From the sequence record OQ420740.1: a DNA stretch of 64,000 nucleotides; one strand, written 5' to 3'. The DNA comes from Escherichia phage B9-1. Of the stretch, positions 23,244 through 35,724 are shown piece by piece. Made by a program: the position numbers and the translations under genes. The number at the start of each line of letters is the position of its first letter. Positions within the stretch are counted from its first letter, which is position 1. Below the pieces are notes generated by a model. That model was not told the origin of the DNA, made no database searches, and saw nothing but the letters and a program-made list of their open reading frames with translations.

Positions 23244-23798
23244 ATGAAATACTTTGTAACAAGCGACACACACTTTCTCCACCAGCGGGTAATGGAGTTC
23301 GACTCATGTCAAAAACACAGATCTCAGTATGATCACAATCTTGACAGTATGAATGCGGGAATCATCACCAAGTGGAACTCTGTTGTGTCACCTGCAGACA
23401 CTGTGTTTCACTTGGGGGATATTGCGTGCACTAATGATAAGAATATCAACAAATTGCTTCCAGATGTTCTAAATATGCTGAACGGACATATTATTCTTGT
23501 TCGTGGTAACCATGACACAAGGACGACTGTCAGAATTATGAAAGAGTTCGGTCATGAGGTTGTAGATTATTACGAGCTTCGCCACAACAAGAATTTGATC
23601 TGTATGAGCCATTACCAGTTTGCAAAGTGGAACAGAAAGCCTCACGGATCAGTCCAACTGTTCGGTCATGCTCACGGAACCACACAGCAGTTGTTTGGCA
23701 GGCAGTTTGATGTCGGTTGGGATGTGTGGGGGAGACTCTTACCATTAGAAGAGGCATACCGTATTGCAATGAGTCTTGCTATTGACAGCGGGGAGTAA
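23244..23798 (+). CDS. calcineurin-like metallophosphoesterase
   Basis: 184 aa from ATG 23244; 'VTSDTHF', 'HLGDI', 'VRGNHD', 'GHAHG' metallophosphatase motifs. Confidence 0.75.
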   Translation: MKYFVTSDTHFLHQRVMEFDSCQKHRSQYDHNLDSMNAGIITKWNSVVSPADTVFHLGDIACTNDKNINKLLPDVLNMLNGHIILVRGNHDTRTTVRIMKEFGHEVVDYYELRHNKNLICMSHYQFAKWNRKPHGSVQLFGHAHGTTQQLFGRQFDVGWDVWGRLLPLEEAYRIAMSLAIDSGE

Positions 23799-23845
23799 TC
23801 CCTGCTATTTTAAAGAAAATTGCCACACAAGGAGAATCAGGAGAT

Positions 23846-24196
23846 ATGAAAGATGGGGATAAGCTGCTATATCTTAAAGTCCCCCTTGAAATACTGTCTA
23901 TGTCAAAAGTTTTGAATGACACAACTGGGGAGGTTGTTGTTCTTGACTTATATGACAAGATCGTATACTGCTACCTGCACAACTGGTACAAGCTTGGAGG
24001 AAATTCACGCTTCACACCCAGCACAAGGAAAATTGCAGCAGATGTTGGGATAAAGAAAACAAAAGCAGCAGCGTGCGTTAAAACTTTAGAATGTGCAGGA
24101 GTGGTTGAAATATCCACACAAGGGAGAGGTAAAAGATGCACATTTTCCAAAGTTTTGCCACCAGAAGAGGTTATTCGAATGTCAACAACTGGTTAG
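23846..24196 (+). CDS. hypothetical protein (possible DNA-binding)
   Basis: 116-aa ORF immediately upstream of the iteron array. Confidence 0.35.
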   Translation: MKDGDKLLYLKVPLEILSMSKVLNDTTGEVVVLDLYDKIVYCYLHNWYKLGGNSRFTPSTRKIAADVGIKKTKAAACVKTLECAGVVEISTQGRGKRCTFSKVLPPEEVIRMSTTG

Positions 24197-24270
24197 ACCA
24201 GTAAAAACTTAAATATCTGTACTATAAGGATTCGTATGTTTTATGTCCACCCCAGAGCAGAGGATAGTAA

Positions 24271-24354
24271 CTGTCCGTGATACGGACACTACTGTCCGTC
24301 ACGCGGACACATCTGCCCGTAATACGGACACTAACTGTCCGTGATACGGACACA
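24271..24354. repeat. four tandem palindromic 19-bp repeats (iteron/operator-like), about 21-bp period
   Basis: 'ctgtccgtgatacggacac' at 24271 and 24336 (identical), variants 'ctgtccgtcacgcggacac' at 24292 and 'ctgcccgtaatacggacac' at 24313; each carries inverted GTCCG/CGGAC half-sites. Confidence 0.7.
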
Positions 24355-24857
24355 TAAAGAATATAACTAAAATAACTAAATAATAAAAAATAAAAGATCT
24401 AGTACTTATGGTACTAAAGTGCATATACTTAACTTATGTAGAATATACTAGATCCTAAGTACCATGTTTTAAATTTATTACTTATTGTTGGTAGTGTCGG
24501 CCCTTCATTGGCACTCGCCTACGAGGGGCGAGATGCCGGGCCTCCATAGTGCACACAATGACAGAAGTGCATACATGCAGGACTGTTAACATGTGTGGTA
24601 GCGAAGCGATAGCGCAGGCCAAAGGCCTAGCACTAATGTGGACCACCGACGAAAGCTTGCCAGCGCCGGAAGGAGTCGGTTGAGAGACTCCCGCGCGAGT
24701 TCTGATAAAGTTTATGTGTGGAAACTGACAAGAAGGCTCCTAAATCGCTACACAGCTATATAAACTATACCAAGTAAGGCAATCGCACCAGTTTGATAGA
24801 AAAGCTCGTTACAAAGCGATACAGTGAGTTTTTCTATAACTTGAAGAGGAGTCTGCT

Positions 24858-25436
24858 ATGAGTTCACGCAAAGATGCCGGTGAAAAGATTGCAAAACGTT
24901 ATCAGAATGAAGAACAGATGGAGAAAACTTTCAAGTGGAAGCCAGGTTTCCAGCGTAATCATTCTAACGCTCGTGATCGTAAGCATCCTGATAAGTGGCT
25001 AACACCGCCAAATGATGGCATGCAGGTTGGTGATGAGAAGGAGCTATCACCTGGAAAAGATGGCAACTACATTCGCACTAAGGACGCTAGTCCAAAGGAT
25101 GACAGCTATCTTGTAGATAAGGTTCTTGATGGTATTGATGTAGATGTTGACACTGCACGAAACCTTTTTCTTGGTTGGTATCGTACAGGGTTTTTCGACA
25201 TCAAGGCCATTCGTCGTGTTTGTGATATTAAAAAGTCTGCATATGATGACGACTCGTTACATCGCACCCTGAGACAATATTCAGAAAGATATGGTCATCC
25301 GGTTATCACTCTTGACGATGTTAACGAAGTGATGTATCATGCAGAGGTTGTTGCAGGCAGATTTGGTGATGCATATCTTGATATCCTTTCTGCAAACGAT
25401 GAGGTAATGTTGAATAAGATTTACTATGAACGTTGA
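24858..25436 (+). CDS. hypothetical protein
   Basis: 192-aa ORF with RBS GAGGAG upstream. Confidence 0.4.
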   Translation: MSSRKDAGEKIAKRYQNEEQMEKTFKWKPGFQRNHSNARDRKHPDKWLTPPNDGMQVGDEKELSPGKDGNYIRTKDASPKDDSYLVDKVLDGIDVDVDTARNLFLGWYRTGFFDIKAIRRVCDIKKSAYDDDSLHRTLRQYSERYGHPVITLDDVNEVMYHAEVVAGRFGDAYLDILSANDEVMLNKIYYER

Positions 25437-25954: not shown

Positions 25955-26245
25955 GGTTGTTTTCGTGTATCATGATGAATATCCAATTTAAAGATGAGTT
26001 TGATGGCTTTATCTCCGGATGCTTTGAAACAGGGTTCGGAGAAGTCTGAGTTCCCCTTAGAGGGCTTGATAGTGCACCACACTTAAAATGGTAGGGGCAG
26101 CCAGCACATGACGATGTGACCCCAGCCAACCTGTAATAAGGTCGAGCCTGAGAGCGGTAATGGGTATAGCTGGAAAACCCACTCGTTGGGTCTTGTTGGT
26201 CCAGGACGCTGGGCAAGTCGCAGGGAATACCACCCTGCGGCGAAC

Positions 26246-26290
26246 TTGACAATCAGTATTTGCCGTGATAAAATCCACCTATCACGTGAT
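26246..26290 (+). promoter_or_regulatory. sigma70 promoter (TTGACA-N17-TAAAAT) with downstream 10-bp palindrome
   Basis: -35 26246-51, -10 26269-74 with upstream TG; perfect palindrome 'atcacgtgat' at 26281-90 between the -10 and the RBS. Confidence 0.55.
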
Positions 26291-26302
26291 AATGGAGGAA
26301 AC

Positions 26303-27206: not shown

Positions 27207-27305
27207 GCTAGGTAAGCCCTTTGGCAAGGGCGAGGATTTTTAATCCTGAAAATAGACGAGGTAGTCGTTGAATACATAGGTGGTTCGATTCCATCACCTA
27301 GCACC
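27207..27305 (+). tRNA. atypical tRNA-like element (99 nt), identity unresolved
   Basis: Perfect 7-bp acceptor gctaggt/acctagc, D-arm gccc...gggc and T-arm ggtgg-TTCGATT-ccatc, but about 30 extra nt between anticodon region and T-arm; a possible UUU anticodon loop 'tttttaa' is non-canonical. Confidence 0.35.
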
Positions 27306-27971: not shown

Positions 27972-28370
27972 ATGATTTCAGTTTTAACATTGATGAGTAA
28001 ACACAGAGGGATCATAAAAGGTTTAGTTTTTGCAGCGGCTATAGGCATGGCTTATCTTGGGGCCGTATATTGGTTTAACTCTAAGCTCAATGATGCTTAT
28101 CAAGAAGGTGTGTCAGCAACAGAGTTAAAGTGGGAACGGATCCTTGACCAACAACAAAAGCAGGCCGACAAAATTAAAATGGGCCACGCAGAGGAGGTTA
28201 AAAACCTTGAAAAATCTCTTTCTGATCTACAGGATAAATTAAATATGGCTGAGAAGGCAGGTAAAGAAAAGCAGATTATCTACCTCCAATCTCCTGAAGG
28301 TAAGAAGTCAACACTTCCTGATCAGCTAATAGATATTTATAATGAGAGTATCAATCAGGAGGTTCGATGA
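27972..28370 (+). CDS. i-spanin (Rz-like inner-membrane spanin)
   Basis: 132 aa; single N-terminal TM 'GLVFAAAIGMAYLGAVYWF' then charged coiled-coil-like periplasmic region; stop overlaps the next gene. Confidence 0.5.
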   Translation: MISVLTLMSKHRGIIKGLVFAAAIGMAYLGAVYWFNSKLNDAYQEGVSATELKWERILDQQQKQADKIKMGHAEEVKNLEKSLSDLQDKLNMAEKAGKEKQIIYLQSPEGKKSTLPDQLIDIYNESINQEVR

Positions 28371-28654
28371 GAGTTACTGCACTGGTTGTTTTGTGCTTGT
28401 TATTGTGTGGGTGTGCAACCAGCGTTGAGAGAGAATACAAGATTGACCCTCCGGATGTAGGAAGGTTGATTGTTAAACCTCCCGAGGGTGCTATGAAACC
28501 ACCTGCTAAAGCTATCCCTTTGAAGAAAGGTGCGCCAGATGCGGTGAATTCTGGCATTATGAGGGATAATAACCTGTCTTGTAGTAATGATAGAGCTAAA
28601 TTGATCATTTTGCAAGACTATATAAGAACACTGTTTCCAAAGGAGAGAGGTTAA
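28367..28654 (+). CDS. o-spanin (Rz1-like outer-membrane lipoprotein)
   Basis: 95 aa; signal peptide with lipobox-like 'LLLCGCAT', proline-rich mature region; ATGA overlap with the i-spanin. Confidence 0.55.
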   Translation: MRVTALVVLCLLLCGCATSVEREYKIDPPDVGRLIVKPPEGAMKPPAKAIPLKKGAPDAVNSGIMRDNNLSCSNDRAKLIILQDYIRTLFPKERG

Positions 28655-30201
28655 TGTCTAAGATTTACGGACCGTGTTCTGAAAAGCAGAAGATGATCCT
28701 AGAGAACGATGCAGATATTTTGGTGATCGGAGGTGCAGCTGGGTCTGGCAAGTCGTTCCTCTTGCAGCTAATGCCGCTTAAAATTATTGATGACCCGCAC
28801 AGCTCTGTGGTTATGTTCCGAAGAACAACTCCACAGTTGGAAGGTGAGGGTGGTCTATGGCCTAAAGCAGTAGCTATTTACAGTGATCTGCCTGAAAACA
28901 TTAAACCAAAGTTCAGAGAGAAGGATCATAAGTTTATTTTTCCACGGTTTGATCCGAGCACTGGCAAGTGGGACAGGAGCAAAAAAGGGGCCGTTGTAAA
29001 ATACTGCCACATGGAGTATGTCCAAGATAAGCTTAACCATCAAGGCCTTGAGTACACCATGGTTTGCTTCGATGAAGGCACGCAATTCGACTGGGAGCAG
29101 ATAGACTATTTGATGTCTCGTCTGCGATCTCCGTCAAAGTATCCGTCAAGAATGGTTATCAGTTGTAACCCCGACTCAGAACACATGCTTGCCAAACTGG
29201 TCAGGTGGTGGTTGGACGATGAAGGGTATCCAGATCCGGAGAAATGTGGTAAGAAAAGATATTTTATCCGACGCGACGGTGAATTTATTTGGGGAGACTC
29301 TAAAGAAGAGTTAATAGAGAAATACACCACGGTTAACGGACTGGGTGTGGAGATCAAGCCAAGACCGTTGTCATTCTCGTTTATAGGCGCAACAATTTTC
29401 GATAATCCTGTCTGCTTGAGAGACAACCCAGAATACCTTGCTTTCCTTGAAGGTCTGCCCGAGCTTGAAAAAGCCCAGCTTCTTCATGGCAACTGGTTTG
29501 CCAAACCTGAAGGTGCAAACTATTTCCAAAGATCTTTCCTTCGGGATGCCGATAGAGTACCTCTTGGATCAGTATCTTGCAGGGCATGGGATAAGGCAGG
29601 AACCGAGAGAACTTCCGGTAATAAATTTCCTGACTTTACCGCCAGTGTTAAGGTAAGTAAAGATAGCGACGGCTTTTATTACCTGTCCGGGGATTATTGT
29701 CCTGAGAACGTGGATGACGGTAGGTATTCCACGGGTCTGGAAGGCAAGTTCTGTAAAAAGGCTGGGGAACGAGATGTGATCATCAGGAAACAGGCGCAGT
29801 TTGATGGAGATGATTGCATAATCGTATTTTCTGTGGACCCCGGTCAGGCAGGTAAGAGTGAGTTCTTAACCTCGTCCAGATCCTTGCTCGCCGAAGGGTT
29901 CAGGGTTGAAGAAGATCCAATGCCTTCCAACAAATCTAAGCTGACAAGGTTCTCACCCTTTGCCAATCTTGCCCAACAAGGAATGGTGAGGATTGTAAAA
30001 TCCAGTTTCCATCCTGACACTCTGGAAGCATTTCTAACTGAACTTGAAAAGTTCAACGGGGAAAGATCAACATTTAACAGAAAAGACGACTGGGCCGACT
30101 GTGTAGCTTCTGCGATTAATTTCCTGGAGAAAGAGGAGGTAGCGCTGCCTTGTGTGATTCCATCAATCTCATCACCTTCTATGTTCAAGCGTTTTATCTA
30201 A
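28654..30201 (+). CDS. terL: terminase large subunit
   Basis: 515 aa; Walker A 'VIGGAAGSGKSF' near the N-terminus, size and position before the portal gene. Confidence 0.85.
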   Translation: MSKIYGPCSEKQKMILENDADILVIGGAAGSGKSFLLQLMPLKIIDDPHSSVVMFRRTTPQLEGEGGLWPKAVAIYSDLPENIKPKFREKDHKFIFPRFDPSTGKWDRSKKGAVVKYCHMEYVQDKLNHQGLEYTMVCFDEGTQFDWEQIDYLMSRLRSPSKYPSRMVISCNPDSEHMLAKLVRWWLDDEGYPDPEKCGKKRYFIRRDGEFIWGDSKEELIEKYTTVNGLGVEIKPRPLSFSFIGATIFDNPVCLRDNPEYLAFLEGLPELEKAQLLHGNWFAKPEGANYFQRSFLRDADRVPLGSVSCRAWDKAGTERTSGNKFPDFTASVKVSKDSDGFYYLSGDYCPENVDDGRYSTGLEGKFCKKAGERDVIIRKQAQFDGDDCIIVFSVDPGQAGKSEFLTSSRSLLAEGFRVEEDPMPSNKSKLTRFSPFANLAQQGMVRIVKSSFHPDTLEAFLTELEKFNGERSTFNRKDDWADCVASAINFLEKEEVALPCVIPSISSPSMFKRFI

Positions 30202-34869: not shown

Positions 34870-35724
34870 GTGAAGAGAGCCGTATATCCAGTCGAGTATG
34901 ATCCTCTATTAAGAGTTTTCAACAATCAGTTAAGTTTTTATCAATTTTTAGCACAATACAATCCAGAAATCAATGTTGGTTTATCAGCCCTGCTGCCACC
35001 AACAGAATTCGTTATTGGCAGTGTTCACTATCCGTGCAGAACGATTGTAGACTTCTTCGAGAAGATTGCAAAACACACAGGCCTGCCAATTGATACTGGT
35101 ATCTCAACTATCCGTATGGGTGTTATTCTTCTGTTCTTCACAGAGAACCTTGATGAAAGCACTTTAACACTGCAAAGCGGTGATGTCAATATCACACTCA
35201 CCCCGTCAGTGTTTAAAGAGGTAGATGCCGCTTTCAAAGTTTCAGTGGCAGAAGGTCATCTGTGGGACCCTGAAGGGATGCCCAAAAAAGTGACCATAAA
35301 CGATGAGCAATGCGATGTTGCTTATGCAGAAGATACCCAGACTTTCACCATTGAGTGGCCTAAGAAACGTTCCCAGGTTGTAAATCTTGGGCTGACTTCT
35401 ACAGTGGCCCCAGAACCTGAACCAGAGCCGGAGCCACCTGTAGGCCCTACTGAACCTGGTGGTGGCAGTGAGGAATCACCAGGTCCGACCGCACCGGAGG
35501 GTACGGAAGGTACTGAGCAGGATCCTGAACAGGCACAAGAATCAAGATCTTCTCACGGCGATGTTGATGCCATACTGCAGCAAGCCGCAGCTCTTAACAA
35601 CGAAGATGACAAGAGTGGTTCGAAAGATGCACTCCAAACCTTCGCTAAAGAGCACGGTGTTACCTTAAGTAAGGCAAAAACTTTCCAAAATATGATGAAA
35701 GATTTTGAGGCTGCACTGGCATAA
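34870..35724 (+). CDS. structural protein with Pro/Glu-rich linker
   Basis: 284 aa, GTG start with RBS AGGAGTG; internal 'PEPEPEPEPP...PTEPGGGSEESPGPTAPEGTEGTE' linker. Confidence 0.35.
   Translation: MKRAVYPVEYDPLLRVFNNQLSFYQFLAQYNPEINVGLSALLPPTEFVIGSVHYPCRTIVDFFEKIAKHTGLPIDTGISTIRMGVILLFFTENLDESTLTLQSGDVNITLTPSVFKEVDAAFKVSVAEGHLWDPEGMPKKVTINDEQCDVAYAEDTQTFTIEWPKKRSQVVNLGLTSTVAPEPEPEPEPPVGPTEPGGGSEESPGPTAPEGTEGTEQDPEQAQESRSSHGDVDAILQQAAALNNEDDKSGSKDALQTFAKEHGVTLSKAKTFQNMMKDFEAALA

Follow-up and report, generated by a model that had tools for sequence, protein, structure and literature searches.

The window analysed here is a stretch of 64,000 nucleotides (nt) from Escherichia phage B9-1 (record OQ420740.1), and our subject is a GC-rich, structured block at positions 24494–24703 of it, which follows a gene for a Rep-like protein, an array of iterons and an AT-rich stretch. 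The 751 nt around the block are 90–99% identical to 118 phage records, all of them from the genus Vequintavirus once mislabelled entries are set aside; the closest is EduardKellenberger (98.8%). On this similarity the window belongs to a Vequintavirus, an rV5-like myophage of E. coli. Eighteen GenBank records of the MG0656xx series bear the name 'Campylobacter phage' and show 93–95% identity to this E. coli Vequintavirus locus, a probable case of contamination or mislabelling.

At the locus, an RNA ligase gene on the - strand is followed on the + strand by genes for a polynucleotide-kinase-like ATPase, a metallophosphoesterase and the Rep-like open reading frame (ORF) ORF79, and then by four iterons, the AT-rich stretch and the block (Table 1). 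ORF79 has weaker matches to O-like initiators, and matches to Pfam DUF6945/HTH_36 just under the curated cut-offs. A promoter-like sequence, TTGACA-18-TATTTT, lies upstream of the rep gene at 23782–23811, and the iteron array is annotated as a tandem repeat in phage Alma. With an initiator of the phrog_12838 family, four iterons and a stretch of GC content 0.23 in one block, the locus has the make-up of an iteron-type (lambda-like) origin of replication.

Table 1. Features of the locus, with positions in the window. Diversity is that within the genus; divergence is that to the two divergent relatives used as outgroups. ORF numbers are those of rV5. MFE, minimum free energy; UTR, untranslated region; aa, amino acids.
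Feature	Positions	Strand	Basis or support	Diversity	Divergence
ORF79, small winged-helix 'replication initiation protein', 116 aa	23846–24196	+	phrog_12838, E=2.5e-80
Four iterons of 21-22 nt, each with palindrome TGTCCGTGATACGGACA	24262–24353		repeat search, spacing 21/21/22 nt
AT-rich stretch, GC ~0.23, candidate DNA unwinding element	24354–24493		composition profile	0.03
Block	24494–24703			0.038	0.116
Hairpin 1, 16 pairs, asymmetric internal loop, bulged A	24499–24542	+	100% paired, 8 distinct variants	0.018	0.04-0.06
Variable hairpin, stems CACACA/UGUGUG, GACAG/CUGUU, UGCA/UGCA; 18-nt indel	24547–24598	+	95.9% of cells paired
Linker motif, copy 1, ATGTGTGG	24591–24598	+	read from sequence
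Middle module: GCGAAGC mini-hairpin (24601–24607) and AGGCC-AAA-GGCCU hairpin (24616–24628)	24599–24634	+	MFE and RNAalifold predictions
3' domain: helix P-a, ACCGAC (24645–24650) with GUCGGU (24675–24680), closing a 24-nt loop	24645–24680	+	6 pairs
Conserved 3' tail AGAGNCUCCCGCGCG	24683–24697	+	kept in phages and plasmids, including L067 and L068 with replaced 3' core
Fast-evolving spacer outside the constrained module	24704–24785			0.10	0.34-0.35
Separately conserved 5' UTR of ORF77 with Shine-Dalgarno sequence	24786–24857	+		0.019
ORF77, 192 aa, function not assigned	24858–25436	+	phrog_12226, E=2.5e-132
ORF77, third codon positions				0.11	0.32

The first-pass annotation of this DNA had described a GC-rich segment at 24480–24730 without any + strand ORF of 60 aa or more, and both observations hold. 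GC content is 0.56 at 24500–24699, compared with 0.23 at 24350–24499 and 0.37-0.39 at 24700–24899 (150-nt windows), and the longest overlapping ORFs on the + strand have 34, 44 and 41 aa; the - strand of the segment contains one ORF of 54 aa. The segment is real, with a conserved core that is slightly narrower, at 24494–24703 (56% GC, with 23-32% GC upstream). The self-complementarity quoted in the same annotation corresponds to a stem-loop of 16 pairs, hairpin 1. Comparison with dinucleotide shuffles confirmed an excess of folding, with z = -3.23 on the + strand and -3.00 on the - strand for 24480–24730, z = -3.41 for the core, and z-scores of -3.2 to -3.5 among phage copies and the plasmid copies described below.

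Besides the window, the alignment in which conservation was examined (23-25 copies in all) contained copies of GenBank phages and of four further metagenome contigs and, as outgroups, those of two divergent relatives: L023, which comes from a Logan assembly, and L003/L020/L054, which belong to a single 137-kb contig. The block evolves approximately threefold slower than neutral-like neighbouring sites, based on its lower diversity and divergence relative to the spacer and to the third codon positions of ORF77 (Table 1). Its 59 distinct substitutions are spread evenly over the codon positions of all six frames, with a maximum of 24 at any one position; the counts for three frames are 14/24/21, 22/19/14 and 19/14/24. 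In the flanking genes, third positions take 129 of 207 substitutions (ORF77) and 54 of 77. The synonymous share in the block is 13/59, 13/55 and 22/57, and the best frame has four consensus stops. This slow evolution, together with the absence of codon periodicity, indicates that the block is a constrained non-coding element.

The compensatory-change analysis called for in the first-pass annotation revealed that the block, besides being under purifying selection, has stems that stay paired through compensatory changes. Hairpin 1 pairs GGCC with GGCC, C with G, GGCA with UGCC, and CUCGCCU with GGGGCGAG, the last with the bulged A. All four of its sites that vary among phages lie unpaired. In the plasmid L062 the stem has four differences, which make up two G-C to U-A compensatory pairs (24511/24536 and 24517/24529) and leave 16 of 16 pairs standard; slid controls are 34-51% paired. 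Helix P-a of the 3' domain has six of six pairs standard and is 100% paired in 20 distinct sequences, with three of the six pairs altered on both sides, the plasmids having GCUGCC/GGCAGC. Its pair 1 is A-U in 12, G-U in three and G-C in five of the sequences. Sliding the partner strand by 1-3 columns gives 11-52% pairing, and none of 500 shuffles matched the observed score. In total, the stem-maintenance test identified five compensatory pairs in two helices, each of which is 100% paired. The P-a loop, GAAAGCUUGCCAGCGCCGGAAGGA (24651–24674), is the same in phages and plasmids save for G/T at 24669; one metagenome contig, outside that alignment, additionally has A at 24661. Paired changes can also be read from the sequences of homologous small plasmid hairpins, with UUAAGCU/AGCUUAA in place of UUAAGCC/GGCUUAA and GUGCU/AGCAC in place of GUGCC/GGCAC.

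Support for the variable hairpin is weak (13/500 in the shuffle test), because its pair 24565/24582, which is A-U, C-G or U-A, is mismatched in six sequences. In rV5, Murica, MaxTheCat and A6-1, 18 nt of this hairpin are missing between AGTGCA direct repeats. Relatives of the linker motif stand at 24635–24644 (AATGTGGACC) and 24714–24721, and the motif (A/C)TGTGTGG(G) divides the hairpin modules in all plasmid copies. A homologue of the middle module, AGCGUAGUGCGAUAGCAC, is present in plasmids L067, L068 and L070. The 3' tail may pair with upstream UGUGUGGGAG via three G-U pairs according to RNAalifold, a pairing with no supporting covariation. On the 20 phage sequences alone RNAalifold predicts 53 pairs and zero compensatory changes, because the stems are invariant among phages. 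Several of the predicted long-range pairs were contradicted, among them the MFE stem AGUGC/GCACU, which is broken in the outgroups, and the pair U24676-A24687, which is mismatched in most genomes; an unrestricted scan for co-varying column pairs was swamped by outgroup-specific changes and not usable. Searches across the window with nhmmer and a covariance model gave no second copy of the block.

The two divergent relatives are informative about what the block belongs to. L023 and L003 retain the phosphoesterase gene, the block and ORF77, with a different 143-aa rep gene between; behind this rep gene come palindromic iterons of unrelated sequence, four to six in number (TCTGATACATATTTGCATCAGAT), and then another AT-rich stretch. 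Homology to the window restarts exactly at GTCGGCCC, the 5' edge of hairpin 1. The rep gene, the iterons and the AT-rich stretch thus differ as one unit, which occupies 1307–2125 of L023 and ~1300–2130 of L003. Judged from these alignments, this is a swap of replication specificity with its breakpoint at the hairpin 1 edge. Since the block is kept beside a different rep gene and different iterons, it is a fixed neighbour of the initiator-specific cassette and not part of it. By the same kind of comparison the block is not tied to ORF77, because a 50%-identical ORF77 homologue sits without the block in a tightly packed operon, with an upstream gap of 60 nt, and because other Vequintavirinae loci lack the block as well. 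Matches in tblastn searches with Rep and ORF77 were confined to the genus. The phosphoesterase, used as an anchor, led to rearranged loci without the block in other Vequintavirinae and in one Stephanstirmvirinae phage. Pattern scans yielded one true contig and one chance match (L021) in IMG/VR, 5 true matches and 30 chance GC-rich matches in metagenomes, and 0 matches in GTDB genomes.

A sensitive blastn search with the block against complete E. coli genomes and PLSDB identified circular plasmids of 13.2-13.7 kb and a 39.6-kb head-to-tail trimer. Such a plasmid occurs in 7 of 5,426 complete E. coli genomes, and the sequence is never chromosomal. We fetched nine of the plasmids, L062–L070 (NZ_CP020521.1, NZ_CP043822.1, NZ_CP178698.1, NZ_CP035869.1, CP148565.1, CP134895.1, NZ_JBUCKS010000006.1, NZ_AP045055.1 and NZ_CP074841.1), of which NZ_CP043822.1 is the trimer. 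They encode a major capsid protein (PHROG 29), a tape-measure protein (PHROG 5255), and baseplate-like and tail-completion proteins with 52-54% and 48% identity, respectively, to proteins of the window; the baseplate-like protein of L062 is annotated as a phage baseplate protein. Their Rep is a helix-turn-helix protein of 288-303 aa with weak matches to O-like initiators, and small proteins without assigned function are encoded too. When the 15 annotated proteins of L062 were all scanned against PHROGs, 8 were without a match, and none was recognised as a terminase, portal, helicase, primase or polymerase. By their gene content these 13-kb plasmids look like satellites of rV5-like phages. We found no paper describing them, and the family is apparently undescribed; a literature search on the Vequintavirus transcriptome, origin, non-coding RNA (ncRNA) or satellites likewise returned nothing relevant. 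The first-pass annotation had missed both the iteron-type origin flank of the block and its sharing with these satellite-like plasmids.

In the plasmids, three AATAGAT repeats and a G-rich block separate the iterons from a module whose construction resembles that of the phage block. The five plasmids in which iterons were checked have five different sets, each of 4-6 iterons of 19-23 nt. The module consists of an anchor hairpin, one to four small perfect hairpins with (A/C)TGTGTGG(G) linkers, AATGTGGA, a 3' domain and the tail AGAGUCUCCCGCGCG. The module follows the AATAGAT repeats and the G-rich block without a break in seven of the nine plasmids; in L062 ~480 nt, including a second repeat set, intervene, and in L069 no module was found. 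Strong sigma-70-like sites for the downstream small-ORF/rep operon come after the module. DNA identity to the phage is 85-87% in hairpin 1 (L062 only) and in the 3' domain, where the block is best conserved, compared with only ~50% for the shared proteins. The 7-mer TGTGTGG/CCACACA is present in 15-18 copies per 13-kb plasmid, an enrichment of about tenfold, and in 19 copies in the window where about 6 are expected (about threefold). One CCACACA lies at 23823–23829, between the -10 element and the Shine-Dalgarno sequence of the rep gene, and another precedes the unrelated rep gene of L023. We rejected CCACACA as a general ribosome-binding-site motif targeted by UGUGUGG, as only one of the 19 copies in the window is at a real start.

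Constraint, the absence of codon periodicity and compensatory base changes together argue for a non-coding, structured and functional element. To this extent the first-pass annotation was right when it proposed an ncRNA, a structured 5' leader or a protein-binding DNA structure; the leader has lost ground in the present analysis. The reading that we favour, tentatively, is that 24494–24703 is a cis-acting, origin-flanking hairpin signal resembling a single-strand initiation (ssi) site. The initiator would open the AT-rich region and so expose the hairpin array; folded as a single strand, the array would work in cis on the origin and provide a loading or priming signal for helicase-primase. We infer that the locus is an active origin, that single-stranded DNA is the active form and that a primase or helicase is the partner. 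A cis-acting element of this kind is favoured by the constant position of the block together with selection for its hairpins and loop sequences. Wherever the block occurs (two phage cassette types and eight plasmids), the constant feature is its position after iterons and an AT-rich region or repeats; this adjacency is direct in all contexts but L062, and the downstream neighbours differ completely. An origin signal independent of the initiator would explain how the module can stay in place when Rep-iteron cassettes are exchanged for others of different specificity, and why plasmids in which no replisome gene is recognisable have retained a module of the phage type next to an origin of their own. 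The stems are almost all Watson-Crick, many loops have 3 nt, and there is a GCGAAGC mini-hairpin, all of which are DNA-like features. Folding of the two strands, compared over 14 copies, differs on average by 0.5 and -2.0 kcal/mol with or without G-U pairs, the strands thus being equal.

Signals for ssi or primosome assembly (pas) are found in RSF1010 (ssiA/ssiB) and, as G4-type and phiX174-type ssi, in F, R6K, R100 and ColE1. Like the block, they are non-coding, are 60-200 nt in length with several stem-loops, conserve structure rather than sequence, adjoin the AT-rich/iteron part of the origin, and are independent of initiator specificity. RSF1010 has the same order as the phage locus, with iterons, an AT-rich region and hairpin signals, which in its case are read by a dedicated primase. 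The block has no sequence similarity to these signals; it is likened to them by anatomy, and its priming activity is a prediction. The order is also that of the lambda origin, in which four iterons, an AT-rich region and an adjacent GC-rich palindrome are served by the O initiator. ORF79 has weak matches to O-like PHROGs, and the lambda origin, like the phage locus, is transcribed from an upstream early promoter. The candidate origin of the phage lies downstream of the initiator gene, whereas that of lambda lies inside it, and the block has ~210 nt and several hairpins where lambda has one 28-bp palindrome, with no sequence homology between the two. We know of no counterpart to a variable-hairpin array with TGTGTGG linkers that is common to a virulent phage and satellite-like plasmids.

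It is possible, although we would not press the point, that the module is the cis handle by which the 13-kb plasmid satellites tap the replication (or packaging) machinery of rV5-like phages. The same folded signal would then mark the start in helper and parasite, and the initiator-iteron cassettes would be freely exchangeable plug-ins beside a universal hairpin platform.

Several observations weigh against an ssi-like origin signal. Plasmids L067, L068 and L070 lack the P-a core and have a different 8-bp hairpin instead; L067 and L068 retain the linkers and an unchanged 3' tail, and L070 retains the linkers and a tail with one base changed, UCUCGCGCGCG. Not every element, therefore, requires the P-a core. 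Nearly all of the compensatory changes come from the single phage-plasmid split and represent few independent events. A blastn search (word 11) of 72,556 plasmids in PLSDB found no similarity to a known plasmid ssi/pas region; apart from one phage genome deposited as a plasmid, every match was to the 13-kb plasmids. In the phage, the early operon that contains the block runs on the + strand and has no predicted terminator, so that the block is certainly also present as RNA. RNA-like features are seen as well, in the C(UUCG)G loops of some plasmid modules and in the A-U / G-U / G-C series at P-a pair 1. Finally, the rV5 origin could not be located by skew analysis (PMC3606486).

These points bring us to a close rival, which we consider a possible explanation of the block: an ncRNA or cis-acting RNA element that is cut from, or acts within, an early transcript starting from the promoter-like site (23782–23811) and extending across rep, the iterons and the block. 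Such an RNA might have a role in replication control, as a primer RNA in the style of ColE1 RNA II or its antisense, or as a UGUGUGG regulator that pairs with CCACACA, and the plasmids would make a related RNA. The neighbouring genes are all on the + strand, and no intrinsic terminator (hairpin plus U-run) was found on either strand in 23700–25000. The genome is AT-rich, and the block stands out in it as a GC-rich island, as does the tRNA cluster 2 kb downstream. The compensatory stem changes fit an RNA, among them the series at P-a pair 1 that passes through G-U; the wobble variants at the ends of P-a and of GACAG/CUGUU are G-U on the + strand, and C(UUCG)G loops and the CCACACA copies ahead of the rep genes of the window (23823) and of L023 are further points in its favour. 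On the - strand of L064, at 643–665 and 728–756, two hairpins at the module's left edge, the anchor hairpin and a C/G-rich one, run into T-rich tails; these terminator-like hairpins would fit an RNA transcribed towards the origin. Weak - strand promoter-like sites (9/12) lie to the right of the module, and L064 has no other signals that frame it.

An RNA is less easily reconciled with other features of the block. No + strand promoter-like site lies directly upstream of it in phage or plasmid, and no terminator follows it. The two strands fold equally well, G-U pairs are rare within the stems, and an A-C mismatch on the + strand of L068 reads as G-U on the - strand. An RNA acting in trans would not require constant adjacency to the AT-rich origin region. 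The covariance-model scan suggested in the first-pass annotation was carried out with Rfam 15 over the window and gave only tRNAs at threshold; in the block no family reached its gathering score and nothing was convincing at E<10. The best match in 24150–24900 was rli43 at 23.5 bits, compared with a gathering score of 100, and its score is driven by the AT-rich flank. ARAGORN found no tRNA or tmRNA in the block. ColE1 RNA II/RNA I and the P4 CI RNA are, like the block, structured multi-hairpin non-coding sequences linked to an origin, and the UGUGUGG / CCACACA repeats recall the seqA/B/C logic of P4. The block differs from these RNAs in that no promoter and terminator frame it in the phage, in the lack of an Rfam match and in the lack of a folding strand bias.

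We consider it unlikely that the block is the pac site of a headful-packaging phage, copied by the satellites for packaging by the terminase of the helper. Vequintaviruses are reported to be circularly permuted, headful (pac-type) packagers (PMC8407724; PMC13211470), and no terminase was recognised in the plasmids, though a small terminase could be among their several small proteins without assigned function. In five of the nine plasmids the block is the only DNA-level similarity to the window that we found; other short matches between window and plasmids are in coding DNA or absent from L067, and L067, L068 and L070 keep just short motifs. TGTGTGG motifs every 30-45 nt could bind a small-terminase ring. 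The block is, however, ~3.3 kb upstream of the packaging operon, whose start was taken from the BASEL linearisation rule (PMC8594841), and 4 kb from the large terminase gene (TerL, 28654–30201), with early genes and the tRNA cluster between. Compensatory changes that preserve stems are not expected of a duplex DNA site read by a protein, and, arbitrary assembly breaks aside, no record ends at the block. In its logic the block comes closest to cis sites common to helper and satellite, such as the cos site of P2 and P4: there too, a helper-type phage and a small element that lacks key functions are most alike, at the DNA level, in a short non-coding stretch. The stretch shared by P4 is a duplex cos packaging site beside packaging genes, whereas the module is beside an origin and far from the terminase, and its pattern of evolution is that of a folded single strand.

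It is improbable that the block is a long structured 5' leader through which translation or stability of ORF77 is controlled. ORF77 does lie downstream of the block on the same strand, no terminator stands between the two, and the proximal UTR (24786–24857) is conserved and contains a hairpin, formed by a 12-bp inverted repeat (24796–24807 / 24826–24837) whose loop includes GCUCGUUACAA, resembling boxA. Between this UTR and the block, however, there is a spacer of ~80 nt that evolves in a neutral-like way. ORF77 is missing from the plasmids although they have the block, and promoter-like sites stand between the block and their downstream genes; conversely, the 50%-identical ORF77 homologue is without the block.

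That the block encodes one or more small proteins, namely rV5 ORF78 (56 aa) or the 31-44-aa ORFs of BASEL and CPT records, is barely credible, even though such ORFs are annotated in several GenBank records and the 18-nt and 3-nt indels are multiples of three: no frame has a third-position bias, the ORF78 frame is not kept open (its third codon is TAG in the window, and in P203 and Alma it is frameshifted), several genomes have frameshifting indels in the block, Pfam and PHROG searches with all of its small ORFs gave no family match, and the stems co-vary at the nucleotide level. ORF78 and the other small ORFs annotated across the block are probably spurious and not genes.

Phages of the rV5 type are isolated widely and are considered for biocontrol and therapy, yet their replication origin is unmapped. 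The locus offers a concrete candidate origin with a modular organization, in which an exchangeable Rep-iteron cassette adjoins a fixed structured platform. That 13-kb plasmids with phage capsid and tail genes have this platform too suggests that a virulent E. coli myophage has a satellite-helper system, in which the module, as DNA or as RNA, is the most probable agent of hijacking.

A few observations concern other parts of the window. A second conserved GC-rich, ORF-poor block lies at 25955–26302, between ORF75 and the ORF74 promoter. It has no Rfam match and is not common to the plasmids; it is 90.5% identical in the divergent relatives (ORF77 DNA being ~83-84% identical), and folds with z = -2.5. 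At 27207–27305 ARAGORN calls a 99-nt tRNA with a four-base anticodon (atcc), which scores 35.5 bits with the Rfam tRNA model; it is missing from the rV5 and FV3 annotations and is given as tRNA-Lys in a BASEL record. Two ORFs at 27972–28654, directly upstream of the large terminase gene, match PHROGs for 'Rz-like spanin'; one of them may be the small terminase, since the BASEL authors begin their records at the operon containing that gene. A stretch of 35 nt with 86% identity is shared by the window (35540–35574) and L062 (2594–2628) and was not found in L067. It is seemingly coding in the phage, and in L062 it is non-coding and lies upstream of the capsid operon.

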